The notes beneath the pieces are model-generated. The model saw only the letters and a program-made list of their open reading frames with translations. It was not told where the DNA came from and did no database searches. A stretch of 64,000 nt of DNA, from assembly GCA_018238155.1 (NCBI GenBank), contig JABCTZ010000046.1, forward strand, positions 160,001 to 224,000. Reading direction: 5' to 3'. Position numbers and translations under genes: made by a program. The DNA is from Candidatus Heimdallarchaeota archaeon. GTDB lineage: Archaea; Asgardarchaeota; Heimdallarchaeia; JABLTI01. Below, one piece after another: positions 1,093-52,770 of this stretch (position 1 is its first letter; each line of letters starts with the position of its first letter).

Positions 1093-2112
1093 TTGGTGAA
1101 TGAGTCAAAAGTAGAAAAAGAACTAATACTTGAAGTAAAAGATCTTCGAACTTATTTCTATGGTAGTGATGACGTTGTGTGGAAAATATTAGATGGAATC
1201 AATTTCAAATTGCACAGAGGTGAGACTTTAGGTATAATGGGTCCATCCGGAGTTGGCAAATCCGTTCTTGCTCATTCTATTTTAAAACTAATAAAATGGC
1301 CCGGAAAAATAGAAGGAGGGGAGATATTCTTCAAAGGCAAGAACCTCTTCAATTTGGAAGAAGAAGATTTTGATGATTTACGTGGCAGAGAGATTTGTTT
1401 AGTAATGCAAAATTCCAGTAACAGTTTGGATCCACTAAGAGATATGACTTATGCAACAAGCCAACCATATAAGGTTCATACTGAAGATGAACATGAGAAT
1501 ATTGAAATTAAGACTCTAGTTATAAGTCAATTAGGTAAAGTTTCTCTACCAGAACCTTCTCAAACATCTGATAAATTTACTCATCAGATGAGTGGAGGAG
1601 AAAACCAGAGAGTAAAAATCGCTACCGCTTTGATTAATAATCCGACACTATTAATTGCTGATGAACCAGTATCAAATTTGGATGCTACCGTTGCTGGAAT
1701 GATCATAGAGTTACTTTATGAAATGAAGGTAAAATTCAAACTAACAATGATTCTCATTACGCATAATCTTGGAGTAATTGCCCAACTTTCAGACAAAGTA
1801 GCGATGATGTATGCAGGTAAGATTATTGAAATAAGTGATGTTGAAACATTCTATCAGAATCCTAAGCATCCTTTTACTCAAGGATTGCTCTATGCTTCAC
1901 CTAGTATGGCTCCTCGAGGAAAATTGAAACCTATTCCAGGAGAAGAACCCGATCCTAGAAAATATCCAACTGGTTGTCATTTTCATCCTCGTTGTAAATA
2001 TGCTATTGTGAAATGTTCAATAGATGAACCAAGCTTAGAGGAATATGACAAAAATCACTTTGTAGCTTGTTGGCGAACAAAAGATATACCAAAATTTGAA
2101 GCTGATTTTTGA
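1093..2112 (+). CDS. Oligo/dipeptide ABC transporter ATP-binding protein (OppD/DppD-like)
   Basis: Walker A GPSGVGKS, MSGGE signature, IADEP, THNLG, HPFT, Cys-rich C-terminus GCHFHPRC...VACW. Confidence 0.9.
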   Translation: MVNESKVEKELILEVKDLRTYFYGSDDVVWKILDGINFKLHRGETLGIMGPSGVGKSVLAHSILKLIKWPGKIEGGEIFFKGKNLFNLEEEDFDDLRGREICLVMQNSSNSLDPLRDMTYATSQPYKVHTEDEHENIEIKTLVISQLGKVSLPEPSQTSDKFTHQMSGGENQRVKIATALINNPTLLIADEPVSNLDATVAGMIIELLYEMKVKFKLTMILITHNLGVIAQLSDKVAMMYAGKIIEISDVETFYQNPKHPFTQGLLYASPSMAPRGKLKPIPGEEPDPRKYPTGCHFHPRCKYAIVKCSIDEPSLEEYDKNHFVACWRTKDIPKFEADF

Positions 2113-2163
2113 ATTATTACATCAATTTTATAGTAATATAGATACTTATAGTCGCTGATGTAA

Positions 2164-2880
2164 ATGAAAGTATTCAAAAATGCTATAGAAAATTTTCTTT
2201 CGAAAGAAAAAATAGGTAGATGTGATTTCCACACACATTCTTTTTTCAGTGATGGTGTACTTCTTCCAATGGAGCTATTACGTCGAGCATTTATTTTTGG
2301 ACATGAAGCATATGCTATCACGGATCATGTAAGTGCATCAAATTTAGATATTATACCAAAATTAACCAAAGATTGTGAACTTGCAATAAAACATTGGGGA
2401 ATACTTGCATTACCTGGAGTGGAATTAACTCATGTCCCTGCAAATGCTATTGAAGAAGTGGCAGAACAAGCGAGAGAGATGGGTGCATTTGTAATCGTTG
2501 TTCATGGAGAAACAATCTCTGAACCAGTCGAACCAGGAACAAATTTGAATGCAGCAAAATTATCAAATGTTGATATTCTCGCCCATCCAGGATTACTCTC
2601 TAAAGAAGAAGCGAGACTATGTAAACAGAACAATGTCTTTGTTGAAATTACTACGAATCCTTCACACTCTATTACAAATGGACATATCGCAAAAGTAGGT
2701 CTAAAAGAGAAAGTAAGTTTCATCCAAAATACTGATACACACAAACCAACTAGCATGTTATCCTATTCTCAAGGAGAAGATGTACTTTTAGGAACAGGAT
2801 TTCATTCAGACATTGTTTCTAAGATACTACAAGATAATGTTCGATCTTTAATTACAAAAATAGAAGATAAAATGTTCTGA
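2164..2880 (+). CDS. PHP-family (histidinol-phosphatase-like) hydrolase
   Basis: DFHTHSFFSDG, AITDH, GVELTH, VVHGET, LAHPG, NTDTH. Confidence 0.9.
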   Translation: MKVFKNAIENFLSKEKIGRCDFHTHSFFSDGVLLPMELLRRAFIFGHEAYAITDHVSASNLDIIPKLTKDCELAIKHWGILALPGVELTHVPANAIEEVAEQAREMGAFVIVVHGETISEPVEPGTNLNAAKLSNVDILAHPGLLSKEEARLCKQNNVFVEITTNPSHSITNGHIAKVGLKEKVSFIQNTDTHKPTSMLSYSQGEDVLLGTGFHSDIVSKILQDNVRSLITKIEDKMF

Positions 2881-2901
2881 AATTTGGAAGAGAAGAAGAA
2901 T

Positions 2902-3190
2902 TAGGGACGAGGAATTTAATCCCCGTCCGTTTAACGAGTGGGTGCCTTTGAAAAAAGTGTGACGAAGTTTTCCCCCCGCCTTGATATTATATTTCACTCG
3001 TTTCTTGGGAAACTCAAGATTTTTTTTATTGTGGAAGGGTTTTAAAGACATTCCTGCAAAAGGAATGTCCGCGTTTTTAAGATTCCCTTGTTTAATACCG
3101 AGGGATGAGGTATTTACAAGTATAACTATGTTGTGAATATTAAAAGGCGTTCTGGAAAATCGCACCCTACTATCTAGTAAAACCTTCCGT
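2902..3190. repeat. Cluster of GC-rich palindromes (REP-like mosaic or structured ncRNA) between convergent genes
   Basis: Hairpins GGACGAGG..CCCCGTCC (2905-2928), AACGAGTG..CACTCGTT, CTTGGG-AAA-CTCAAG, GACATTCCT..AGGAATGTC, TCCCTTG..CGAGGGA, GGCGTT..CGCACCCTAC, long-range GGAAGGGTTTTA/TAAAACCTTCC. Confidence 0.6.
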
Positions 3191-3236
3191 ATATTTATTA
3201 GCATTTGAAAAAAAATAGATGAAAAGAAAGAGAGGT

Positions 3237-3258
3237 TGGATTTCTAGCTAGAAATCCA
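3237..3258 (-). terminator. Palindrome + T-rich tract terminator
   Basis: Perfect palindrome TGGATTTCTAGCTAGAAATCCA just past the stop at 3267, followed by a pyrimidine/T-rich tract on the minus strand. Confidence 0.5.
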
Positions 3259-3266
3259 TAAACTAT

Positions 3267-4148
3267 CTAATTTTGAGACGTTTTCTCAATTTGAGATGCT
3301 GTAGGATCTATCTCTTCTTTAGGTGACGTACCCAATAGAGTTAATTTCCAGAGCATTAATAGCAAACTAAACAGAATGAACCCACCAGCGAGAAGTGCCG
3401 AGAAAGTCCAAATATCGCCAGTTTTTTCGAAGAATGCTTTTTCAGTTACTTGTTTAATTAATGTACTCCATATTATTGGATAAATTACAAGTGGAAGTAT
3501 AAGTGAAACTATTGAAGCAGTAATCTTCGTCCTTTGTATGTATCTTAAAGCTAGATAATGTGCTCCAAGAAGGATTATAGCTGCTAAAATAAGGAAGAGT
3601 ATATTTACAGCAAAACTATTGAATGTTTCTGCACTACCATATTGAGGTAAATTGACAGGAGGAACCATTACATCATCAACTTCTATACCTGTTCCTGGTT
3701 TTAGATAAGTATGTCTATGTATGGGAATATCGTGAATTGCCGGATAGACTAGCAGATAGTTAACAATACCACTTACAACTGATACTGCACCAGCTGAACC
3801 CAACATTATTCCAAATCTTGCAAATGATTTCTTCTTTGGGTCTAGACCCATTGATGTACCAAAAATAACTTCAGCAATAAATATCAAAGTAATTTCGGTT
3901 GGTAATAAAAGAGCTATCATGGAAAACATCGCACCTATTCCAGGCTTAGTAGCATTTCCTAATGGTGGATCGATTACTTCATCAGCATTCGTATCAAGAT
4001 TGGCGTCTCCTTGTACATTGTTCAAGGTAGGTGAAATGAAATCAAGACCATTATTTGCTACAACATGAGAACATCCGACATTCCAAACAACTAAAAATGC
4101 TATTGCTACCACAAAAAAGATCGTTTTAGAGATTGTACTTTTTCGCAA
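3267..4148 (-). CDS. Hypothetical polytopic membrane protein
   Basis: 293-aa ORF, N-terminal signal-like segment plus about 5 hydrophobic helices. Confidence 0.75.
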   Translation of the reverse strand: MRKSTISKTIFFVVAIAFLVVWNVGCSHVVANNGLDFISPTLNNVQGDANLDTNADEVIDPPLGNATKPGIGAMFSMIALLLPTEITLIFIAEVIFGTSMGLDPKKKSFARFGIMLGSAGAVSVVSGIVNYLLVYPAIHDIPIHRHTYLKPGTGIEVDDVMVPPVNLPQYGSAETFNSFAVNILFLILAAIILLGAHYLALRYIQRTKITASIVSLILPLVIYPIIWSTLIKQVTEKAFFEKTGDIWTFSALLAGGFILFSLLLMLWKLTLLGTSPKEEIDPTASQIEKTSQN

Positions 4149-9386: not shown

Positions 9387-9623
9387 AATTTTCACACCGT
9401 TTTTTGCTCAATTTCGGTTCGAATTATTTGTTATTACTTTTCACTACTATATTTTAATTTGTTAAGAGTTGATAAATTTTTTTATAATCTAATTCAACTC
9501 TTTTTCTTTTTAAGTATTTATTAGATTCAGATAAAAAGAAATTCTTTCAATTACTTAAGACTTTTTTCTAAAATGACCTATTGGGAAAACTACTTTGATA
9601 TGAGTTTCAATATTTGAGAGGAA

Positions 9624-9650
9624 CGGTGGGCAACTGTTATCACACCCTAT
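9624..9650. repeat. Degenerate REP-like palindrome
   Basis: CGGTGGGCA-ACTGTTA-TCACACCCTAT resembles the GGTGGGCA..TGCCCACCCTAC form of GTAG-type REPs. Confidence 0.35.
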
Positions 9651-9916
9651 GGACAAATACTTTCGTCAAACTCTTAACAAAGAGGTTTTATAGTGAGTAA
9701 TTGTATAGCTCTTTCTGACAGCAAAAGTCAAAAACCTACTCAAAATACTCCTGCTCCGTACCTCACATAGATTCAAAAAATCATTCTCACAGCTATTCTC
9801 TGTTGAAGTGTCAGAGATGAATTGCATCAACAAACTGATTGTAGTGACTGACAGTTTTGGATAAAGTATTTCAATATATATTGGAATAAGGAAATTATAA
9901 TAAGGAAAGGCATTAA

Positions 9917-10711
9917 ATGACAAATGAAACTCTACAACGAAAAATTATTTTTGAACTATATTATAAGGATTTAATTACTCCCAATGATAATCTAAATCAT
10001 TCTGTTAAATTGCTTGATGAAATAAAATCGAAAAAAGGGTTTGATTACAAAATTATCAATGAGCTAACCACAGAGCAAGAGGACGATTTGAAAGATGAAA
10101 TCCGTATTGCTGCCGGAAGATGGAAATATAAAGTAGTAACAAAAGGTGGGGGGGCTTTAGTAATCTCGGGGAAAAAAAAATTAAATTACCAACATGGGCC
10201 GATTTTAGTTATTAGAAAAAACAATAAGATAATCGAAGTTTTTCCACGGGGCGATCCAGGTTCCAAAGAAAGTAGATGGACTACAATTGATTTCTTACTC
10301 ACTTTTCTAAAAGAAAAAATTTCAGTAACTGAAGTATTTCGAGGTCAAATATTTTCAGAAGATGATCTGCGAAATTTGATAAAGAGCACCCCTGGAATTA
10401 TTGAGAAGGGATTAACGTATTTTGATATTGAAGTTGAAATTGATTCTTCACGAATAGACTTGGTTCTAATTGACAAAAAGAATCGTCATTTATTATTAGA
10501 ATGCAAATTAAATGCAACAGACAAGACAATTGGGCAAGTAACAAGATACAGCCTTGACCGTTATTCAGAAAAATTTACTCTTCCTAAAGAGAAAATTCGA
10601 CGGGGAATTGTTACTTTGAGTGTTACGGGGCAAATTGCAGATGCTTGTAAAGAGCAAAACATTGAATTGTATATTGTTCGCCTAAAAAATCTAGGCTTTA
10701 AAAATAAGTGA
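9917..10711 (+). CDS. PD-(D/E)xK nuclease with NucS/EndoMS-like C-terminal domain and unrelated N-terminal domain
   Basis: EDDLR..I...P..IEKGL, RIDLVLID, LLLECK, IGQVTRY. Confidence 0.8.
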   Translation: MTNETLQRKIIFELYYKDLITPNDNLNHSVKLLDEIKSKKGFDYKIINELTTEQEDDLKDEIRIAAGRWKYKVVTKGGGALVISGKKKLNYQHGPILVIRKNNKIIEVFPRGDPGSKESRWTTIDFLLTFLKEKISVTEVFRGQIFSEDDLRNLIKSTPGIIEKGLTYFDIEVEIDSSRIDLVLIDKKNRHLLLECKLNATDKTIGQVTRYSLDRYSEKFTLPKEKIRRGIVTLSVTGQIADACKEQNIELYIVRLKNLGFKNK

Positions 10712-10843
10712 TCTTTTTAGTTTATAAAGAATAATTAGACTTGTGCTATATCTTAATACAACAATACTATATATGAATTAATATAGGATATAAAACAAAT
10801 CTAAACTCATACTGAGATATAAAATTCTTTTCAGGTAAAGGTA

Positions 10844-11662
10844 ATGGACAAATCTGTATATAATTCTTTCAAATCGGCTCTTGAAAAAGTCAAAATTAGT
10901 GAATATGACGAAGCATTAGCTATTTGTGACAAGATTATCTCTGAAAATTGTCCCGTTTATAGTATTACTCACACTAATTCATTTAAGATAAGTGAATGGG
11001 AATTTTTTGATGACATCTCTTCTTGTGAGAAAAGTATATACAAAGATGTCAAATGTTACAAAGGATATCTAGCACTCAGCATGCTCTATAAAATTGCCGG
11101 AAACACAGACCGAAGAAAAATATTTCTTCAAAAAGCACTAGAGAGATCTATTACCGTCAACAGAATTTGGCGAGATTTTGGAGAAACTTCATTTCAATTA
11201 GGAAATGTTCGTGAAGCTTTACAAAAATTTCAAGAGGCAATTGCTTTGGATCAATACGATTCTGTTTCTTTTGAGGGAGTTGGTCTTTGTTATTATTATT
11301 TGGACGAACCTTTCAAGTCTTTAACACCTTTAAAGAGAGCATTAACATTAAGTCCAAAAAACCATGCTATAATGAATAATCTATCTTTCATTTTATCTGA
11401 AATTGGCGATCTAGATGATGCTTTGAACTTAATAAAAGAAGCTCTTGAACTTCATAACAAAAGTAATGTTTATTGGGACACTTATGCTTCAATCTTATTT
11501 CTTCAAGAAAAACATGAAGAATCATTAAAAATATTCGAGAAAATTCTTGAAAATGATCCTAAAGATTGGGAAATCTCTTGGGATATCCTAACTAGTATCT
11601 ATAATACATTAGGGTTGCATGTAAAGGCAAAGATAATAGAAGAGAAATTGCATCTCAAATAA
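10844..11662 (+). CDS. Tetratricopeptide repeat protein
   Basis: Several TPRs in the C-terminal two-thirds (WRDFG..., EGVGLCYY, NNLSFIL, WDTYASIL). Confidence 0.85.
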   Translation: MDKSVYNSFKSALEKVKISEYDEALAICDKIISENCPVYSITHTNSFKISEWEFFDDISSCEKSIYKDVKCYKGYLALSMLYKIAGNTDRRKIFLQKALERSITVNRIWRDFGETSFQLGNVREALQKFQEAIALDQYDSVSFEGVGLCYYYLDEPFKSLTPLKRALTLSPKNHAIMNNLSFILSEIGDLDDALNLIKEALELHNKSNVYWDTYASILFLQEKHEESLKIFEKILENDPKDWEISWDILTSIYNTLGLHVKAKIIEEKLHLK

Positions 11663-38750: not shown

Positions 38751-39791
38751 TTATTCTTCAGTTAAACCAGGGAAATAATATTTCATACCACTTGAGTAAC
38801 TAGCGTCTTTTATTGCTAAGCCAGATTTTACGAATTTTTCCATTTCTTCTGAGGCTTTTTCTATAGACCAATTTGTAATCATAATGAGTTCTTCAAGAGT
38901 TATATAACCCTTCTTTTTTGCAAACCCAAGAATAATATTTGTTTCAGTTTCTGATGGATGCAGTTGAATCCAGAATTGTCCTTCTCTATCTTGCTTTAGT
39001 ATTAGCAAGCCTGTTTCATCCAAGGTAATCAAAACTTTTTGTATATCTTTAATTTCAGCTCTCACTCTTGGAAATTCTTCTTTTAAGCGTGAAAAAATTG
39101 CTCTCATAGCAATTGGTTCTGTTGAAGAACCGATGTCAAAAGTCATAATTATTTTCAAAAGAATATTGCCCAATTGGTCATAATATTTTCCTTTACCAAT
39201 CAAACGAGGTTTATCTAATTTTATGATTCCTTTTAATGCCCCTGCTCCTTCTGCAAATTCAAGTTCTTTGTTAAAAGAAAGCATTAATGATTCAGCAACT
39301 TCCTCTGAAGATTGAATGTTTACAGTAATTTTTTCTTTGTTTGAAAATAATTCAGACATTAATTGAATATCATTTAGAATCTGTTTTGCTAATGATTTTA
39401 TTTCATCTTTATCTTCAAAAATAATCAATGAATCAATACTTCCAAAGATTATTTTAAGATCCCAACACTTGCTAAAAATGATTAAATCAAATAATATAGC
39501 ATTGTTAAAGATATTTTTTCTATTTTTATCAGATGTACCAGGTCGAATTCGCACTTCCATTCGCCTTGATTGATCAATTAAAGTATCAATTCTCAATCGT
39601 AATTGGTTCATCAATCTTGCAATATCATTTAGGTGTTTGCTTGAGGTTAGAGAGTTTATTACTAAAGCTCGAATGTCAAATAATAACGTAGTTGAAACTG
39701 AATGTAATTTCTGTTCGTACACCTTTAATTTATAGAGACCTTTTGGTGTATCTACTAGATCTTGCAAAGCAGTAATTTTAGCATTGTCCAT
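38751..39791 (-). CDS. ESCRT-II Vps22/Vps36 (EAP30)-like tandem winged-helix protein with extra N-terminal helical domain
   Basis: YYDQLG..L, DIQKVL..L...GL, IL..AKKKGYIT...L...NWS.EKA...E..VKSGLA.KD......YYFPGL. Confidence 0.75.
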   Translation of the reverse strand: MDNAKITALQDLVDTPKGLYKLKVYEQKLHSVSTTLLFDIRALVINSLTSSKHLNDIARLMNQLRLRIDTLIDQSRRMEVRIRPGTSDKNRKNIFNNAILFDLIIFSKCWDLKIIFGSIDSLIIFEDKDEIKSLAKQILNDIQLMSELFSNKEKITVNIQSSEEVAESLMLSFNKELEFAEGAGALKGIIKLDKPRLIGKGKYYDQLGNILLKIIMTFDIGSSTEPIAMRAIFSRLKEEFPRVRAEIKDIQKVLITLDETGLLILKQDREGQFWIQLHPSETETNIILGFAKKKGYITLEELIMITNWSIEKASEEMEKFVKSGLAIKDASYSSGMKYYFPGLTEE

Positions 39792-42017: not shown

Positions 42018-45000
42018 TTACTCTTCTTCACTCGAGATAGAGGGTTTTATGTCATCAGCTTTTAAATGTCTTTGACAAACCGGACAAGAGCCTTTCACTT
42101 TTATCCACTCAAATAAATGCTCATTATGAGCAACATTTTCACAGTGGGGACATTTTGCAGTATCTACACCAAAACTAATTGGTAATTTACAAACTGAACA
42201 TTTTACCGTTTCTATACCGCAATTGGGGCATAAATCCTCTCCAAAAGCTTTTTCGACTCCACATGAAAAACATCGAATAAGTCTTCTGTCTAATCGTTCT
42301 TTTATGACCTCTTGAGCTGCAGGTATTACCATTTCTTTTGGTTGTACACCCAAACCAATGAGGTGAGTTATTTCTTTGATTATTCTATTCTTGTAGAAAT
42401 CTGGTGCGTATTGATAGGCATATTGTAGATGTGTTAATGAATTTTGTAGATCTTCTGAATCTTTGTAAGCTAGACCAAGATCTTCTGCTACAAAATAGAG
42501 CGGTATGGTCATTTCAATTCCCAATATTCGTCTACTTTGTTCACTTAAACCATTTAATATTTGAAATTCGTTTAGAAGTGCAGCAGCTTTCTTTTCTTTG
42601 TTTTTCATTTTACGTGCATCAACAATTCTATTTAGGGGGTCTAATATCCAATCTACAATATCTAACCATTGCTCATTCTTTAACACTACAAGTGATTCTT
42701 TTGCCTTTTGCCAAAATGTCAATGTATCGAAGAATTTTCCTTCCCAAGCTAGATTTTGCCCTTGGAGTAGTAAATCTCGAGCACGGTATCCATGGAATAA
42801 TTCTAATTTTTCAGGTTGATATTCTTCACTTATTTTAATACCCATTTCCCAATTTCCTGTTGCAGAGTACTCTTTTATTAAATTATCAATTGCCTTTGAT
42901 TTGAACCAAGGTAAATCCATTACTAATGGTTCATCATCAGTAAATTGTTTTCTAATTCTTTCCTTATTCACCTTATATGTAATAACCAAAAAGGCAAAGA
43001 ATAATACAACTACAACCGCTAGCATTATCCAAAGACTGTTCAATAAATCGACGGGTAAAATATGAAAGTTTGTTTTTACTTGCACTGTTGTTGTGAATTG
43101 ATAGGTTCCCACATTTGTAATCAGGGTTATTGTTATTAGTTCAGAATAAGTTTCTTCACTATAATTGTTTGTGAGGTTTATGTTCAAATTATAAGAAGAA
43201 TTGCTTGTTGAATTAATAGTGTAATTATATGTATTTGAACTTCCAGATATATCTGCCTCTATGGTAACATTAACATCAATCTCGATTTCTAATTGATTGG
43301 TAATATCTAATTGAATTGTTTGAGTAGTATTTTCCTCCTTTCTTAAAACAATTGGATCAGGTGGAAAAGTAGTTACAAATTCAGGTAAAGCAGTTATAGT
43401 CATCGTAAATGAATGCTCATCAATAACAATATCATCCATTAGAACTTGTATAACAATGTCATCATTCGTTACGTCTTCATCAAAACCAGTTAAATTTAGA
43501 ATTATCTGATTTGGTACTTCAGTTATTGTTTGATTTATTTCAGGATGGTTTTCTAGAAATGTTTTTACTGTAAAATCATCTCTTAATCGAACATTTCCAA
43601 GCAAATCATATATTTCAATTTGAACTTTATTTGCTTCATTCTTTATGAGAAAATGTGAATTTGCTGAGACTCTCATTGGAACATATTGGGACAAGTAAAA
43701 TTCAATATAATGATCTCCTTCACTGTCGTATCCTAACCAAGAGCCAATGTTGGCATAATCCAGGTTCAAGGATGCACAGGATTTTATCCTATAGGTACTT
43801 GATTGTCCTGAAGCAATTTCTTGTGAATCATTACTTGATATTACAGAATAATGGCTTCGAGTTAAACCCAGTAAGTCATATGTAGTCAAAATAATCTCAT
43901 CACTATCATCCAAGTCAATATCAGAAATTAGCCCATCAAATGACCATCCTGGAGATAAATCGAGAGACTTTATTGTGGGAGACCCAAATGTACCAGATTG
44001 ATAACTTACTGTTACACATGAAGGATAACTAAATGCACCAATATAATGAACACCAAATAATACAATACCGGGATTTTCACTTTCGGCAATATGATATAAT
44101 TTCATATTATAAGTCCTAAATGTTTCTGAACCAAAATTCATTTGAAAAGTAGACTCAAATACATATTCCCTGGTATCATTCTTAATTATTGAAATTCCTA
44201 TTACAAATGATTCTATGGATGTTGAATTTACTCCAGAGATTATAAAATTTAAAGTATCATATTCTTCGATATAATCCATTTTAAATTCTTCTAAATCATT
44301 TGCATCCCATTCCAATATCTGAGATAATTCATATTCATTACTCGTCTGATTATACTCATATTCTGCTAAAAGATAATAATCAGTGTTGGTTGTATTTTCC
44401 CCTATGACATAGATTTCGAAGAAATCATCACTATTCACATCAAAAACAATAAATTGATCAAGAGATCCAAATATTGATGCGTTAATAGCGATTGTAGCAT
44501 TTAAAGAGAAATATCCAGCATTGATTTCTAAAATATCTATCTCAAATCTATTTGATGTTGTTATTTCTTTCAAAGCAAAGACTGTTGGATTCTGGCGTGT
44601 ACTATCAAAGCTGGTATTGATTGATTGGCAATTCAAGTACTCTGTTTCAGCTAAAGAAGTATTGAGATATATATCAGATACAAAGGGTTCCGGATTCGCA
44701 ATAATTGTATCATCGAATTCTATTAACTGAAGCAATCCATGTTTGTGGTTCGTCTGGTTTTCAATTGATCCTACTGTAACATACCCTCCATCAAAACTAT
44801 TGCTAAAATCAATTGATTTAATCTCATTCATTAGATGAGAATCATTAAAACTTAAATCAGAAGTTTTTTGTAATAAATAATCTAGCTCTGTATCTTGATA
44901 TATTTCATAACTATAACTTTCAATTAGATTAGGATCTCTCAAAGAGAACTCTTGTCTCAAATTGTTAGTAACAGCGAATGCTATTGCTAACGAACTCAAT

Positions 45001-45056
45001 ATCAAAGACGAAATTACTAAATAACTTATGAGAATCTTTTTCACTAAATCACCCAC
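42018..45056 (-). CDS. Single-pass receptor-like protein: beta-rich ectodomain, TM, helical region, Zn-ribbon and RING-like C-terminus (putative E3 ligase)
   Basis: Signal peptide; DVNSDDFFEI and DIDLDDSDEII Ca-loop motifs; TM SLWIMLAVVVVLFFAFLVITY; CFSC..CPNC; CSVC-x-CPHC-x-HNEH-LFEW-x-CPVC. Start may be GTG at 45044. Confidence 0.8.
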   Translation of the reverse strand: MGDLVKKILISYLVISSLILSSLAIAFAVTNNLRQEFSLRDPNLIESYSYEIYQDTELDYLLQKTSDLSFNDSHLMNEIKSIDFSNSFDGGYVTVGSIENQTNHKHGLLQLIEFDDTIIANPEPFVSDIYLNTSLAETEYLNCQSINTSFDSTRQNPTVFALKEITTSNRFEIDILEINAGYFSLNATIAINASIFGSLDQFIVFDVNSDDFFEIYVIGENTTNTDYYLLAEYEYNQTSNEYELSQILEWDANDLEEFKMDYIEEYDTLNFIISGVNSTSIESFVIGISIIKNDTREYVFESTFQMNFGSETFRTYNMKLYHIAESENPGIVLFGVHYIGAFSYPSCVTVSYQSGTFGSPTIKSLDLSPGWSFDGLISDIDLDDSDEIILTTYDLLGLTRSHYSVISSNDSQEIASGQSSTYRIKSCASLNLDYANIGSWLGYDSEGDHYIEFYLSQYVPMRVSANSHFLIKNEANKVQIEIYDLLGNVRLRDDFTVKTFLENHPEINQTITEVPNQIILNLTGFDEDVTNDDIVIQVLMDDIVIDEHSFTMTITALPEFVTTFPPDPIVLRKEENTTQTIQLDITNQLEIEIDVNVTIEADISGSSNTYNYTINSTSNSSYNLNINLTNNYSEETYSELITITLITNVGTYQFTTTVQVKTNFHILPVDLLNSLWIMLAVVVVLFFAFLVITYKVNKERIRKQFTDDEPLVMDLPWFKSKAIDNLIKEYSATGNWEMGIKISEEYQPEKLELFHGYRARDLLLQGQNLAWEGKFFDTLTFWQKAKESLVVLKNEQWLDIVDWILDPLNRIVDARKMKNKEKKAAALLNEFQILNGLSEQSRRILGIEMTIPLYFVAEDLGLAYKDSEDLQNSLTHLQYAYQYAPDFYKNRIIKEITHLIGLGVQPKEMVIPAAQEVIKERLDRRLIRCFSCGVEKAFGEDLCPNCGIETVKCSVCKLPISFGVDTAKCPHCENVAHNEHLFEWIKVKGSCPVCQRHLKADDIKPSISSEEE

Positions 45057-45095: not shown

Positions 45096-47276
45096 CTAAT
45101 TAACTCCCTTTTTAGATTTTTTCCGTTTTCTTATAGAAACAAAAACGCCAATTATCATCAAAGATGTCAACAGTATGCCAAATGGAATTGGTGATAGTTG
45201 AGAGGCATAAGATCTATAATACGGATCGCCAACAGTTACTTCTTCAGGACCGTAGTATAGGGAAAATGCTCCAGAACGAACAATTTGTTCAACCCAAAAG
45301 AAATATTCACCATCGGTCAGTACAATATTCTCATATGTGCTAATTGTATCAATTAGAGTCCAATCGCTATCGAAAATAGTTACAGAAGCAACGAGTTCAG
45401 TATCGTAAGGCACAAGTGTAAAGAAACCACTTCCATCAGAAATTGCTATTTGTGCTTTGAATAATATTGTTCTTCTTAACTCTGAAATTATTGGTTTATT
45501 ATTTTCAAAGTATCCAAAAGTCAATATTTCATCTACTGAAGTCCATTTTACTTTGATAGATGAGCTGCTAGTATTCCCTTGAAGTGAAACCAAAAAGTTG
45601 TTGATATATGAAGTCTTGTTAATTCTAATGATTCTTTCTGTTGAAGTAGAGTATATTGTTGATACATCGAAATCACTAGCATCTAATTCAATACTTAGAC
45701 TTTGATCAGATTCAATCCAAAGATACCCAATGTCTGAATCTCTATTATAGCTTAAATAGGAATAAGTGTTATTGAAACTAAAGCTCAATCTCTTGGTTGA
45801 ATTATCCTTTATAAAAAGAAATTCAGTTATTGAATCCATAGATATAGGATAAACTGCAATAGTGATATTGAATATAATGGTCACACCAACATTGCTAAGA
45901 CCATCCATAGCCTCAATATAAAATGAAACTTTGTCTCCTTCTACAAGATTATCAAGAGTAGTATAATATGTATTATCTATTACATCTGTGAGTATCATAA
46001 AATGCCAAGTTGGACTATATGGTCCTGTAAGCGAATCGTAAGTATAGTACATATTTACTTGAGCTATTTCAGATATATCCATAACTGTAGCATATATTTC
46101 TAATTCATAATCATTGTTTACAATATTGTTTGCTATTGTTGAAACTGTTATGGATGGCGGTGCAAGATCTATAATGATCTCTTTCGTCAATTCAGAAAAA
46201 TGATACTCATCCCCTGTTCCAGTGTTTTCAGTCCAAGAGATATTGACATTAAGATCGACAAAATACTCTCTAACCAATTCCAATGTCCAGCCCTCTATCA
46301 ATTCAGGCAAGTCAATAGGATCAGTTCCAGATTGAATATCTTCCAAGTACACACATTCACCTTCAGTGTGATCAGCAATCCATTGAAATTGGTTTTCAAC
46401 TATGCCACTTATACCTGTGATTACAGAATTGATTATCACATCCTTCTCCTTTAGAGAAGTTATAACATTCACCAATTGAGTTCCGTTATAATAATCAGCT
46501 GTTGAACCTAACCCAACGATATTCCCAGGATCACAATCTTCATCTCCAACAATAATTGCTAATTTTGGAACATCTTCACGCCAAGACCAACTATTAATTA
46601 CGGAAAAAGCATCACCCCAAGGTTCAACACCACCAGTGGCTGTCAATTCATCAATCAGATTTAATACTTCATTGTGATTGGTTGTTAATTGAACGTAATT
46701 ATTCACACTTGAGGCAGGATATTCACTATATTTATCCCAACCATAAACTATCATACCAATTCGTAATGAATTTATATTATCTGATAAGCTGTTTACAACT
46801 TCAGTAAATTTAGCTTTTATTGAACTGATTTCATCACTCATGGATCCACTTGCATCAAAAACCAAAACTACGTCTGCAGCATTTTCATCGTCAATTTGAG
46901 TCAAATTGAGAATTACTTCTACATTTATCGTAGAATTTTGGGTTGGAGAAATCAAAGCTACTTCTTGATAACTAGAGTATGTTGAAGAAAATTCTGAAAA
47001 TTCTCCATCAAGAGTAAAATTAACTTTTACATTGCTTACGGGGTTTGTACCTGTATTATCCAAATAAATCTCAGCTAATGCTCCATTGTGTCTGCCAATT
47101 GATGTTTGATTTAATGTAAAATCGATCTCCAAATCTTCAAAACTATCGGGGGTCAGATCAATAGTTTGAGGGGAATCTGGTTTTATTGCATCACCCATAG
47201 ACAGACTCACTATCAAGCTCATAATAACTAGAAATAAGGTTATTTTTTGTGTTGGCAAGAGTTTTTTCATCGTCAC
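45096..47276 (-). CDS. Membrane-anchored vWA-domain surface protein
   Basis: Signal peptide; DVVLVFDASGSM MIDAS, LRIG, ATGG.EPWGDA, WRED.PK....GDE; C-terminal TM + RKRKK. Confidence 0.88.
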   Translation of the reverse strand: MTMKKLLPTQKITLFLVIMSLIVSLSMGDAIKPDSPQTIDLTPDSFEDLEIDFTLNQTSIGRHNGALAEIYLDNTGTNPVSNVKVNFTLDGEFSEFSSTYSSYQEVALISPTQNSTINVEVILNLTQIDDENAADVVLVFDASGSMSDEISSIKAKFTEVVNSLSDNINSLRIGMIVYGWDKYSEYPASSVNNYVQLTTNHNEVLNLIDELTATGGVEPWGDAFSVINSWSWREDVPKLAIIVGDEDCDPGNIVGLGSTADYYNGTQLVNVITSLKEKDVIINSVITGISGIVENQFQWIADHTEGECVYLEDIQSGTDPIDLPELIEGWTLELVREYFVDLNVNISWTENTGTGDEYHFSELTKEIIIDLAPPSITVSTIANNIVNNDYELEIYATVMDISEIAQVNMYYTYDSLTGPYSPTWHFMILTDVIDNTYYTTLDNLVEGDKVSFYIEAMDGLSNVGVTIIFNITIAVYPISMDSITEFLFIKDNSTKRLSFSFNNTYSYLSYNRDSDIGYLWIESDQSLSIELDASDFDVSTIYSTSTERIIRINKTSYINNFLVSLQGNTSSSSIKVKWTSVDEILTFGYFENNKPIISELRRTILFKAQIAISDGSGFFTLVPYDTELVASVTIFDSDWTLIDTISTYENIVLTDGEYFFWVEQIVRSGAFSLYYGPEEVTVGDPYYRSYASQLSPIPFGILLTSLMIIGVFVSIRKRKKSKKGVN

Positions 47277-48728: not shown

Positions 48729-50336
48729 TTATTTCTTCTTCTTTTTATTGATAACCATAGTGACAATACTTACTGCTACAAGTGAAACGATCACTGAAAC
48801 GATTGATAGAGGTGAAGGAGCAGTTACTGTTACGGTGGTAGTAATATTTACTTCTTCTGGCTGTGTTATATTGAGAGCGTAAGTTAATACTGCATCTGGA
48901 TACCAAGCTTTTGTTGCAGTAACAGTTAGTGCTTGTTTTGTTTCTGCTGTTCCAACTACTACTTCATAAACACCATTTGCTAAGAAGGTAGCAGGATAGA
49001 CATACCCATTGTAATTAACGATAACAGTTGCATCATCTACAGGCAAGCCTGCAGCATCAAAGACGAAGTATTGTAGTGTACAAGTTGGAGACCCCATTTC
49101 TTCACTCTCTACATCAATGAATAGTTGCGGTGAAGCATACGGGAGATAAACATGGATGTTTTCTTTTATCAGCACTGGAACGTAGTAAATTATAGGAATG
49201 AAAACTGGAATAATTATTGGTATGAAGACAAATCGAATTGGTTGATTGATAATATTAACAACGATATCAATTATGAATATCAATTGTATAAACCAGAATT
49301 CAAAGTGGAAAATGAACGTTAATTCCCAAATAATTATCGAGACAAAGAGAAATATTATCTCAATATATTCATAGACAATTACTATTTGTGATTCATATAT
49401 TTTAATTTCGAAAGTATAATAGATGATTACTATTAATAGCTCAACGATTGAGATGTAGAGAATTATTGTTAAATCCCAAATTAGAATCACTAATCGTTCG
49501 ATTAAGAAACCAAAGAACCAAGTTATTGAAATATAATCAAAAATCAGTACAAGCATAAAGCTATTGATACAAATTGACACTCCAGCATAACCAATTGTTA
49601 CACTATTACCATCAAAATCAATAGCAATAATTAGATCAGCATATATTGGTACAGGTAGTGGACCGAGTGGGAATGGTCCGTCAAATATTGGAACCAGATA
49701 ATCTATGTGCAAATAGCCTGCTCCGCCATTGAAATTCACGATGATTATACCAGCTGGTGTAATTATATCCCAAGTAGTTTCATTTAAACGACTAATCACC
49801 AATCCAGTTGGTCCAACACCGTCATTTATGATTAGATATCCACCTATCATTTCAACTGTATTCGTTAAGTCTGCAACCAAAAAGTCACCAGAAGTAGAAT
49901 TGAAGCTTATTTCTATTGGCTCACTACCAAAGATAGTTGTATTCCACTCATCGTTATTTGGACCTGAGCTGCTCAATTCAAAAGCCATATCTGGCAAAAC
50001 AACTGTTAGATGTTGTCCATCAACACTTGTTTCGAAATCAACATCAAATACCATTTCATCTGCTTGAGGTGACAAGCTAGGATCTAGTTCTGTACATAAA
50101 ACACCGACATTTGTAGCATTGTGTTCTAGTTGTAATTCATAAGTACCATTTAATAAGATAGTAGTCAATTCAGGTGTTTGTTCAATGACTTCAATGGTAT
50201 TCCCATCGTAATCATAGGTAGCATTTGGTGACACAGAATCATCAAATGTTGGTGGTAAAGCTGCATTTCCAGAGAAAGCTGGTAAAAATGCAATAAGCGA
50301 AATAATAAGAATAGTATATATTATTCGTTTCGTCAA
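48729..50336 (-). CDS. Secreted, C-terminally anchored protein with an extreme Ile/Phe/Val-rich segment and an Ig-like domain
   Basis: 535-aa ORF, strong GAGGAG before TTG, signal peptide, C-terminal Ig-like region (FVFDAAGLPVDDATV..NGVYEV), Thr linker, TM, KKKKK. Confidence 0.8.
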   Translation of the reverse strand: MTKRIIYTILIISLIAFLPAFSGNAALPPTFDDSVSPNATYDYDGNTIEVIEQTPELTTILLNGTYELQLEHNATNVGVLCTELDPSLSPQADEMVFDVDFETSVDGQHLTVVLPDMAFELSSSGPNNDEWNTTIFGSEPIEISFNSTSGDFLVADLTNTVEMIGGYLIINDGVGPTGLVISRLNETTWDIITPAGIIIVNFNGGAGYLHIDYLVPIFDGPFPLGPLPVPIYADLIIAIDFDGNSVTIGYAGVSICINSFMLVLIFDYISITWFFGFLIERLVILIWDLTIILYISIVELLIVIIYYTFEIKIYESQIVIVYEYIEIIFLFVSIIIWELTFIFHFEFWFIQLIFIIDIVVNIINQPIRFVFIPIIIPVFIPIIYYVPVLIKENIHVYLPYASPQLFIDVESEEMGSPTCTLQYFVFDAAGLPVDDATVIVNYNGYVYPATFLANGVYEVVVGTAETKQALTVTATKAWYPDAVLTYALNITQPEEVNITTTVTVTAPSPLSIVSVIVSLVAVSIVTMVINKKKKK

Positions 50337-50544
50337 TTTTTTTTTCTCCTCAATATTTCATCAATTTAAATTTAGAGTTCAATTATCAATCGTTATAAAT
50401 AATGTACTTATCTTTTATTACTTTTACTTTATAGCACTCTCAAAATTTCATTAATGCATTGATAATTTAGTATAAATATACCTTTATTCTATAAAATAAG
50501 AAAATAAAAAGATCTTGAAGAATAAACCTCTCAGAGGTCGTAAA

Positions 50545-51715: not shown

Positions 51716-52174
51716 TTAAGCTAATTTTTTCTCTTTATAATCAATTACTAATGCCCTTTGTTCTGATGTTTCTAACGCACATGGTCGTACTTCTTTCAAG
51801 TTTTTAATAGCTTCCTCACCATCCTTAGGATTATAGAACAATTTTTCTGCAAGTGCCAACATCACTCCGGTTCTCCCACAACCAGCATGACAATGAACAA
51901 GAACTGGCTTTTTCTCCTCTTTAGCTTTTGAAAAAACCTCTAAGAATTGTTCTATTTGCTCTGTTTTTGGAACACCAAAATCAGTAATATATAACTCTAT
52001 ATGCTCAAAATCAGCCTTCAGAGTTGAATGTTCGGCTAATTTGTTTATCTCTTCTTCCAGAGAAATAATTACCTTTATTCCTTGTTTTTTAATATAATCC
52101 AAATTTTCTTGTGTTTTAGGTAATTCAGATCCATAAAGTTCATTTTCTTTGAAACAATAGAAGTCAAATGTCAT
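51716..52174 (-). CDS. Dual-specificity/tyrosine protein phosphatase
   Basis: ITDFGVP, VHCHAGCGRTG (CX5R), RPCALETSEQ; ATG at 52174 preferred. Confidence 0.9.
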   Translation of the reverse strand: MTFDFYCFKENELYGSELPKTQENLDYIKKQGIKVIISLEEEINKLAEHSTLKADFEHIELYITDFGVPKTEQIEQFLEVFSKAKEEKKPVLVHCHAGCGRTGVMLALAEKLFYNPKDGEEAIKNLKEVRPCALETSEQRALVIDYKEKKLA

Positions 52175-52200
52175 TTTCTTTACATCCTTTTTGCTTGAAT

Positions 52201-52770
52201 CTATTTTTTTTCGTTTAATCCCCAAAATCTTTTCTCTGCTCCTGCTGCTTCTCTTCTTTTCTTTATTGTTTCTGGATCAGCTAAATCTTCATCTTCATCA
52301 GGTTTTGTTTGGAATTTCTTTGATCGTATATAGAAGGAAATAACAATAAATAGGAAGATTACACCACCAAAAACAGCTAAAACAATATACACCGAATCAC
52401 TTGCACCTTGATTTAACAATATTAAATTAACTTCAAAATAACCTTCTGATGAACCCTCTGTTTCCAGAGAGAAGACTAATACAGTTACATTCACAATTTG
52501 GAATATTTGAGTTTCACCTTGAGCAATAGTTTTTGAAAATCCATTTACTGTTGCAGTAACATTTGCACCACCGTTAGAAACTGAAATACTGATAGATCCA
52601 TTATAATAATTATTATTTTCAATATTAAGAAATTCGACCTTTTCGTCATTGAGAAGAAATTCTTTTTTAGTATAACCACCTGAAACGAATGTGGAGATAA
52701 TTAATACAAAAATAACTATTAGAAATAAAATGCTCCTAGTTATTTGATTACTCTTTCTTCGTTTATTCAA
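52201..52770 (-). CDS. Hypothetical type I membrane protein
   Basis: Signal segment, small beta-rich ectodomain with sequons, TM, charged tail. Confidence 0.7.
   Translation of the reverse strand: MNKRRKSNQITRSILFLIVIFVLIISTFVSGGYTKKEFLLNDEKVEFLNIENNNYYNGSISISVSNGGANVTATVNGFSKTIAQGETQIFQIVNVTVLVFSLETEGSSEGYFEVNLILLNQGASDSVYIVLAVFGGVIFLFIVISFYIRSKKFQTKPDEDEDLADPETIKKRREAAGAEKRFWGLNEKK

Follow-up and report, generated by a model that had tools for sequence, protein, structure and literature searches.

An alanine- and glycine-free hydrophobic beta-meander as a candidate oligomerisation core in a surface protein of a Heimdall-group Asgard archaeon

What can a stretch of some 140 residues that is dominated by large apolar side chains, and from which alanine is absent, do in a protein exposed on the surface of an archaeal cell? 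The question is raised by the gene at 48729-50336 (minus strand) of the window, by which we mean the whole stretch of 64,000 nucleotides analysed here, taken from a contig of a Candidatus Heimdallarchaeota archaeon. The open reading frame (ORF) starts with TTG, encodes 535 amino acids (aa) and is present as a single copy in the 4.08-Mb genome; its product is a type I membrane-anchored surface glycoprotein of a Heimdall-group Asgard archaeon. An earlier note on this DNA had drawn attention to coordinates 49140-49585, which correspond to residues 251-399, and had read the segment as a very hydrophobic beta-solenoid or beta-spike. Here we describe the composition, conservation, restricted distribution, predicted beta structure, sidedness and flanking domains of this segment. 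We infer that it lies outside the cell, and we tentatively propose, giving the idea somewhat less than an even chance, that it may be a homo-oligomerisation core, built as a dimeric sandwich or a trimeric prism, which would bear a variable glycosylated head.

The composition of the segment is extreme. Residues 253-392 (140 aa) contain no Ala and a single Gly (G276) next to 42 Ile, 17 Phe, 14 Val, 13 Leu, 9 Tyr and 4 Trp, which bears out the original description of an Ala-free, Ile/Phe/Val/Tyr/Trp-dominated segment of this length with one Gly, and 12 Asp and Glu stand against 4 Lys and Arg. In the remainder of the protein Ala and Gly together account for 13.2% of residues; at this background, one Ala or Gly or fewer in 140 residues has a probability of about 5e-8 by our own binomial arithmetic. 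About 65% of positions 253-368 are strongly hydrophobic, and Kyte-Doolittle values over 19-aa windows of the segment range from 1.3 to 2.4. The genome has 3065 stop-to-stop ORFs of 150 aa or longer, and in each of them we scored I, F, V, Y, W, L and M minus A and G over a 140-aa window. Residues 253-392 scored 100, the genome maximum, compared with at most 78 for true polytopic membrane proteins, and just two scores lay between these values (95 and 94), both from repeat DNA read out of frame. Contig C16, which lies outside the window, carries long simple repeats whose LLLQ/FFS-type pseudo-ORFs give these next-highest scores and look like repeat DNA rather than genes. An artefact of low GC content was considered and rejected: relatives at loci of 41-45% GC still have 0-1 Ala or Gly, together with 35-46 Ile, in a 110-aa core, and the remainder of their proteins contains 8.5-13% Ala and Gly and about 6% Ile. 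Because the scarcity of Ala and Gly is kept in these relatives, the composition is selected and not a by-product of low GC.

Some of the finer patterns that had been reported for the segment hold and others hold in part. The aromatic-acidic pairs are present as WD at 287-288, FE at 309-310, YE at 314-315 and 322-323, WE at 337-338 and FE at 345-346. A proline every four residues is found at 373-381, but not elsewhere, the prolines lying at 366, 373, 377, 381 and 387. As for a recurrence every eight residues, a strict sequence repeat is not significant (offset-8 self-similarity 62, against 52 +/- 8.5 for shuffles), internal repeats at offsets 8, 16 and 50 do not rise above shuffles, and the power of hydrophobicity at period 8 is 0.39; what survives of this claim is structural, since the strands predicted by AlphaFold2 (AF2) start 7-11 residues apart, with eight as the commonest spacing.

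The segment is embedded in a protein with the following layout, in which TM denotes transmembrane, Ig immunoglobulin, pLDDT the predicted local distance difference test score and pN nonsynonymous divergence:

48729..50336, minus strand: whole gene, encoding a type I membrane-anchored surface protein of 535 aa, with orthologues at 31-68% identity
50262..50336, minus strand: signal peptide, residues 1-25, with a basic n-region, a hydrophobic core and a conserved LPAFSG.A (AF2 helix at 2-16)
49587..50225, minus strand: variable all-beta N-terminal ectodomain, residues 38-250, with N-x-S/T sequons (AF2; column identity 0.38-0.70; pN 0.18)
49254..49580, minus strand: Ala/Gly-free hydrophobic beta-meander, residues 253-361 (AF2, periodicity, faces, conservation, indels)
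49137..49253, minus strand: proline-punctuated hydrophobic segment, residues 362-400, with P366, P373, P377, P381, P387 and P399 (conservation)
48858..49133, minus strand: Ig-like or macroglobulin-like beta-sandwich, residues 402-493 (structural matches by VIA)
48810..48857, minus strand: Thr-rich linker, residues 494-509 (sequence; AF2 pLDDT below 50)
48732..48809, minus strand: C-terminal TM helix, residues 510-530, and a KKKKK tail (AF2 helix at 512-534)

The flanks that had been proposed are thus recovered: the signal peptide and the beta N-domain ahead of the segment, and behind it the Ig-like domain (402-493) and the C-terminal TM helix with its KKKKK tail. In the signal peptide, L18, P19, G23 and A25 are invariant or nearly so across the family alignment. 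The full-length AF2 model (25 sequences, mean pLDDT 67) predicts the N-domain with a pLDDT of about 80-92 at residues ~110-250 and 42-78 closer to the N-terminus. The AF2 predictions resolve the meander at 253-361 into some eleven short strands of 5-7 residues and one long amphipathic hairpin (336-361), with conserved acidic and aromatic residues in the turns. The proline-punctuated segment that follows has low predicted confidence (pLDDT 22-60) and ends in a conserved Y-[VL]-P-Y-A-S-P motif; P373, P377, P387, Y397 and P399 are invariant in the family alignment, and distant relatives keep the segment in a longer form. In one distant relative (P0054, residues ~489-525) a Trp-Pro run (VPWWPWWPWWWWPVW...) replaces this strap, which shows that the strap is selected for bulky apolar residues between prolines and not for a specific sequence. 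The Ig-like domain matches complement macroglobulin (MG) domains, CrdA and SlaB with VIA Z scores of 10-11 and a root-mean-square deviation (rmsd) of about 2.1 A over 85-90 residues, and the same region has a below-threshold Pfam match to CarboxypepD_reg. The C-terminal TM helix has a simple insertion energy of -1.2, the lowest of the whole protein. Hidden Markov models of the C-terminal sorting signals PGF-CTERM and Heimdall-CTERM (NF045529) gave no match in the 535-aa protein (P0001). One distant relative, encoded at 1303-3309 (minus strand) of locus L010 (G080:C540), ends in PTPGFELGF... and has below-threshold matches to both models (NF045529 14.3 bits and PGF-CTERM 12.1, against cut-offs of 24 and 24.5); on this sequence evidence some relatives may be archaeosortase substrates, unlike the 535-aa protein with its plain TM anchor. 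An extracellular position of both flanks of the greasy domain is indicated by the signal peptide, by the N-x-S/T sequons in the N-domain and the Ig-like domain and by the Lys tail, taken together.

Relatives were collected in two ways: by a word-seeded search of 5.8 billion proteins, and by running a domain-only profile against 1.84 billion representatives of any length. The word-seeded search returned 39 clusters, all of about 530-550 aa and 31-68% identical to the 535-aa protein, and at 50% identity the family amounts to about 20 clusters. The profile search returned only 20 proteins among the representatives, some of which are 640-693-aa forms from other families of the same Asgard class. 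These forms have a longer N-terminal domain that is not alignable with the N-domain of the 535-aa protein, and they share the module order of greasy domain, Pro-rich strap, Ig-like domain, Thr-rich linker and TM anchor. The distribution of the domain is narrow: it is present in 13 of the 83 species genomes of one Asgard class, that is in 4 of its 18 genera, and was not found in two large families of that class (0/31 and 0/22 genomes) or elsewhere in the sample of the phylum, while a scan of viral contigs gave no viral relatives.

Within this small family the hydrophobic segment is the best-conserved part of the protein. In an alignment of 25 sequences, column identity is 0.66-0.83 across residues 261-400 (0.75-0.83 for 281-380), compared with 0.38-0.70 in the N-domain; the segment has almost no indels, and each member contains 0-3 Ala and 0-1 Gly in it. 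The codons tell the same story. Relative to the closest orthologue, pN rises from 0.063 in the domain to 0.18 in the N-domain and 0.38 in the Ig-like domain, whereas 44-57% of synonymous sites have changed, which is near saturation, and the ratio of nonsynonymous to synonymous divergence (dN/dS) in the domain is about 0.1. The low nonsynonymous change against near-saturated synonymous change indicates that the frame is translated and under strong purifying selection, and we reject a frame or annotation artefact on the same dN/dS value. Conservation in relatives, whose absence the earlier note had named as a reason to abandon its reading, is therefore highest in the very segment concerned. The syntenic orthologue in a congener (locus L023, 8737-10389; G082:C60) is 36% identical, while flanking cytosolic genes are mostly 47-67% identical; between congeners the gene has changed far more quickly than the genes around it, with most of its divergence lying outside the hydrophobic core.

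Several lines of evidence suggest that the segment is made of strands. In the full-length AF2 model, short strands with two-residue turns run from residue 38 through 343, those at 237-343 belonging to the greasy domain, and are followed by a low-confidence helix (348-361) and the disordered Pro-rich stretch. A second model, of the domain alone as a monomer (residues 225-405, 50 sequences, predicted template modelling score 0.62), has 16 strands and no helix, with 11 of the 16 strands 5-7 residues long and a pLDDT of 81-93 at residues 235-325. Family-averaged hydrophobicity has a power of 4.3 at 160-180 degrees, compared with 0.9 at 90-110 degrees, and a period of about 2.25 residues. Leaving aside a stretch with 4-5 prolines, the longest run free of D, E, K, R, N, Q and H is 12 residues, and conserved charged or polar residues are spaced no more than 12 apart. 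Moreover, every indel in the family alignment maps to an AF2-predicted turn. Three relatives carry a polar insert of 4-5 residues (THDGS, TLGGI, TFTGY) at 267/268, the mid-point of what would be the first helix, and in distant relatives residues 344-366 give way to a Lys-rich amphipathic strand of the IKIKIKI type. The sequences of the candidate loops are ER, EIKIYESQ, HFE and NQPIR, and with 12 acidic residues to 4 basic ones a positive-inside pattern is lacking. We consider it highly probable that the segment is beta and not alpha. The original impression that it does not look like TM helices agrees with both all-beta AF2 runs and with the beta periodicity of its hydrophobicity.

The predicted domain is an extended, twisted meander of antiparallel hairpins forming a single-layer sheet. 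When the domain model was compared by VIA-align with 48,161 PDB representatives, the closest match was the TCP domain (G-box) of CPAP/SAS-4 (Z 10.4, rmsd 3.4 A over 127 residues; a second entry at Z 9.8), followed by OspA (Z 8.9) and MORN1 (Z 8.7, rmsd 2.8 A over 131 residues). These alignments cover 127-139 of the 181 residues and denote a fold-level resemblance of a predicted model. Porins (Z 6-8, rmsd 5-8 A) and LptD, LptC and LptA (Z 5.8-7.2 over 70-92 residues) matched weakly, and the comparison of the full-length model was dominated by its Ig-like domain. Foldseek returned nothing at E <= 1e-3 for the domain model against PDB and BFVD and just beta-propeller noise of low TM-score for the full model against PDB, and the ESM Atlas gave no usable match. 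In line with the earlier statement that no family is recognisable, Pfam gave no match in the domain at E <= 1, a profile search of PDB none at E <= 10 and NCBIfam none. Our literature search found no description of the domain, an Asgard START lipid-transfer paper (PMC12139934) and an Asgard solenoid preprint being unrelated. Two structural suggestions of the earlier note did not hold up: AF2 gives an antiparallel hairpin meander in place of a parallel beta-helix or solenoid, and the eight-residue repeat of phage gp5/VgrG is missing, as there is no VxGxxxxx pattern, 0-1 Gly per domain and no significant offset-8 repeat.

The two sides of the predicted sheet are unlike. We propagated side-chain orientation through the predicted hairpins, with the register uncertain across two longer loops. 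In this model one face consists solely of I, L, F, W and V (for example W.L.F.F.F.F and I.L.F.I.I.V), and the opposite face is a mixture with S, T, E, K, Q, H, D and N (for example E.K.Y, E.T.H.E and Q.D.N) that is roughly half apolar. Both faces are conserved to about the same degree (0.69 and 0.73). E310 and K312 are swapped to K and E in a distant subfamily, which suggests a maintained salt bridge, and the predicted sheet is about 75 A long.

We believe that these properties are best accommodated by an oligomeric assembly on the cell surface. A sheet that is greasy on one face would be unstable alone in water, so that copies would be expected to pack their greasy faces together, and near-fixed identities with both faces equally conserved favour specific protein-protein packing over exposure to fluid lipid. 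In such a scheme the signal peptide would export the protein and the C-terminal helix with its Lys tail would anchor it; from the membrane outwards there would follow the Thr-rich linker, the Ig-like domain, the Pro-punctuated greasy strap, the Ala/Gly-free domain and the fast-evolving, glycosylated beta head. If two, three or more copies brought their greasy faces together, the result could be a beta-sandwich or a triangular prism with a dry, interdigitated interior, for which the Pro-punctuated segment might act as a strap. The packed rod might serve both as an obligatory oligomerisation core and as a rigid stalk that holds the variable heads off the cell. A prism or spike in which each meander supplies one face is compatible with the pattern of one greasy face per sheet and with the partial matches to phage spikes described below.

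Several observations weigh against this scheme. The inferred oligomerisation comes solely from the chemistry of a monomer model, and the outside of a simple dimer or trimer would still be greasy, because the mixed face is about half hydrophobic. The pLDDT of the domain-only model drops to 52-64 beyond about residue 330, and the absence of Gly and Asn from the tight two-residue turns is not what hairpins usually show. Three 19-residue windows (starts 289/291 and 327) have marginally negative simple insertion energies of -0.2 to -0.9, and the Sec translocon might integrate parts of the domain. Finally, covariation, computed as mutual information with average product correction from a shallow alignment of 58 sequences (effective number ~39), was dominated by subfamily signal; of the 20 strongest pairs, 15% fell close to the AF2 ladder, the background being 2.6%.

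The same greasy surface could instead meet lipid, and we regard it as unlikely, if not strikingly so, that the meander, as a monomer or as an oligomeric spike, inserts into a membrane. The membrane could be that of the cell itself, with the meander as a monotopic anchor in the outer leaflet, or that of a partner or prey cell, where the meander might serve adhesion, mix lipids or form pores. The strong hydrophobicity of about 65% of positions 253-368, with even the outer face half apolar, would suit this idea, as would the Trp, Tyr and acidic residues at both strand ends, which resemble interfacial aromatic girdles, and the hairpin 336-361, which alternates W.L.F.F.F.F and I.L.F.I.I.V with polar E.T.H.E and Q.D.N as the stems of beta-pore-formers do. 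In addition, the domain is separated from the membrane by just the Ig-like domain and a short linker, and there are weak structural matches to membrane-piercing phage spikes and to porins. However, 11 of the 16 strands are only 5-7 residues long and hence too short to cross a bilayer, AF2 forms no closed barrel and the porin matches have an rmsd of 6-7 A. Positions that face lipid tend to drift, but here the residue identities of both faces are very strongly conserved, and the twelve acidic residues would meet anionic archaeal lipids. To our knowledge, no transmembrane beta proteins are known in single-membrane archaea. The specific form in which an oligomeric greasy beta-prism or sheet enters the bilayer of the cell itself or of a syntrophic partner, as a new membrane-active beta module, we likewise take to be unlikely. 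A membrane location of a more conventional kind, with AF2 in error and an even number (2-6) of Ile-rich TM alpha-helices forming a polytopic domain, seems very unlikely to us. The high overall hydrophobicity (Kyte-Doolittle 1.3-2.4), two regions of slightly negative insertion energy, a topology that permits an even number of spans and the occurrence of Ile-rich TM helices in this low-GC genome speak for it. Nevertheless, apolar spans of ~18 residues are missing (longest run 12 outside the Pro-rich stretch), the excess of acidic over basic residues leaves no positive-inside loops, and the small residues needed for helix packing are wholly absent. The periodicity is that of beta and not alpha structure (4.3 against 0.9), two AF2 runs give strands with high pLDDT, and relatives place a polar insert inside the putative first helix and an IKIKIKI-type strand over 344-366.

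Two further readings start from the one-sided sheet. It could offer its I/F face as a groove or surface for binding or conducting apolar matter such as lipids, hydrocarbons or sulfur, like Lpt or the AsmA/TamB beta-jellyroll or 'taco' proteins, or for attaching the cell to hydrophobic particles. The sidedness, present although the outer face is only half polar, the position between membrane anchor and outer head and the partial matches to LptD, LptC and LptA fit this idea, which we nonetheless consider highly improbable: the Lpt Z scores (5.8-7.2, over 70-92 residues) lie within the noise range of VIA, the identities are nearly fixed where a ligand surface would be expected to exchange I, V, L and F, and there are no transporter or lipid-metabolism neighbours in a gene context that is itself not conserved outside the genus. 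Alternatively, meanders might stack face-to-face and edge-to-edge into amyloid-like surface fibres or a sheath, to which we assign the lowest probability of all. Beta-branched and aromatic composition, two apolar and conserved faces and open meander edges would allow such stacking, and the closest fold, the CPAP G-box (4by2), is described as a beta-sheet of a single layer which serves to recognise a proline-rich motif (PMC3776556); yet each chain has its own TM anchor and large flanking domains that would restrict stacking, and the Gln/Asn ladders or imperfect-repeat signature of curli/Fap are lacking.

Direct reading of the sequence upstream of the gene gives two putative expression signals:

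50346..50351, minus strand: putative Shine-Dalgarno-like GAGGAG, 9 nt upstream of the TTG start
50393-50400, minus strand: putative A/T-rich TATA-like box, ATTTATAA

The nearest named relatives of the 535-aa protein are hypothetical proteins from Heimdallarchaeota and from metagenome-assembled genomes of the Asgard group. The neighbours of the gene in the window are metabolic and housekeeping genes, other surface proteins and an EAP30/ESCRT-II-like gene. The latter (38751-39791, minus strand) encodes a stand-alone EAP30/Vps36-like (ESCRT-II) protein with a Pfam E-value of 1.4e-4, under the gathering score, and fits an Asgard origin of the window. Two further surface proteins are encoded downstream, likewise on the minus strand: one at 45096-47276 with a von Willebrand factor A domain (Pfam VWA, 1.6e-8) and a C-terminal TM anchor, and one of 1012 aa at 42018-45056 with no Pfam match. 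Both also evolve fast (26-43% identity between congeners). At 51716-52225 (minus strand) there is a small dual-specificity or Tyr phosphatase, with DSP-PTPase families as top Pfam matches (Tc-R-P 8e-19, PTP-SAK 8e-17). Synteny around the gene is kept within the genus only, paralogues and distant relatives lying in unrelated neighbourhoods; we therefore rejected a conserved operon partner, and no partner gene can be inferred. Directly beside a second family paralogue, at 9525-11153 (minus strand) of locus L025 (G090:C61), lies a 542-aa ORF that has no BLAST match to window ORFs at 36-60 kb.

As a whole the protein is nothing unusual for an archaeon: a type I anchored glycoprotein that carries an Ig-like domain. 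Its greasy meander belongs to no sequence family and, as modelled, inverts the chemistry of similarly shaped single-layer sheets; a strictly conserved, Ala/Gly-free sheet with ~30% Ile, probably placed outside the membrane, has a chemistry unseen in described folds. If it is an oligomerisation core, it would represent a new way of building a surface stalk and a natural extreme of a dry beta interface. Were it to enter membranes, it would define a new class of archaeal membrane-active protein; it would be the first beta structure to cross or insert into a membrane in a single-membrane archaeon, and a candidate for mediating the intimate membrane contacts between cells that are invoked for eukaryogenesis. 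Asgard archaea are without an ordered S-layer, and the sole cultured Lokiarchaeon that has been imaged displays numerous uncharacterised proteins on its surface, through which the contacts between cells that bear on eukaryogenesis are thought to be made (PMC9834061). For structural work the domain offers a compact, expressible target of ~180 aa.

How, then, does the meander compare with known systems? Its likeness to the TCP domain of CPAP/SAS-4 (4by2, 4bxp), to MORN (6t4r) and to the central sheet of OspA (6kk9) lies in the extended antiparallel hairpin meander. Sequence relationship there is none, the Pfam, NCBIfam and PDB searches having been empty with regard to Tcp10_C, MORN and OspA. In those sheets both faces are polar and the monomers are soluble, whereas the domain described here is Ala/Gly-free, greasy, probably extracellular and membrane-tethered. 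The CPAP G-box binds a proline-rich peptide laid across its single-layer sheet (PMC3776556), and the conserved Pro-punctuated segment directly after the meander recalls this ligand, although by analogy only.

Phage and injection-system spikes (the T4 gp5 C-domain, phi92 gp138, the phiKZ central spike and VgrG) share strands of ~6 residues spaced ~8 residues apart, and the prism with a hydrophobic interior of the membrane-piercing spikes would be a plausible assembly for the domain as well. Chains of phage, type VI secretion system (T6SS) and contractile-injection spikes matched the domain model with Z scores of 6.3-9.4 over 57-100 residues, the middling range of the tool, and an rmsd mostly of 2.3-3.6 A (5.3 A for VgrG; 9cuy_Y, 6orj, 9euf, 3pqh, 3pqi and 6u9e match at Z 6.5-9.4). 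In contrast to gp5/VgrG, where strands are parallel and intertwined and VxGxxxxx repeats place Gly at the kinks, AF2 predicts antiparallel hairpins here and all 25 members have 0-1 Gly. Nor is there baseplate, tail or T6SS gene context around 48729-50336 or any viral relative, and the protein is a cellular, TM-anchored glycoprotein.

Oleosins likewise contain an exceptionally long uninterrupted hydrophobic segment with conserved prolines in a non-polytopic protein. Their central hydrophobic domain of ~70 residues has a proline knot, is rich in Ala, Gly and Leu, faces the cytosol and is embedded in lipid droplets; no sequence or fold evidence ties oleosin to the domain here. The overall plan of the protein finds its counterpart in Sulfolobus SlaB (8qox_B), which likewise combines a Sec signal and beta-sandwich domains with one TM anchor at the C-terminus and an oligomerisation module, the last being a candidate here. 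The Ig-like domain matches SlaB with Z 10.2 and an rmsd of 2.0 A over 89 residues, which is a generic Ig match, and no SlaA-like canopy partner is encoded near 48729-50336. SlaB trimerises via an alpha-helical coiled coil, and it is this module whose place the greasy beta-meander may take in the Asgard protein.

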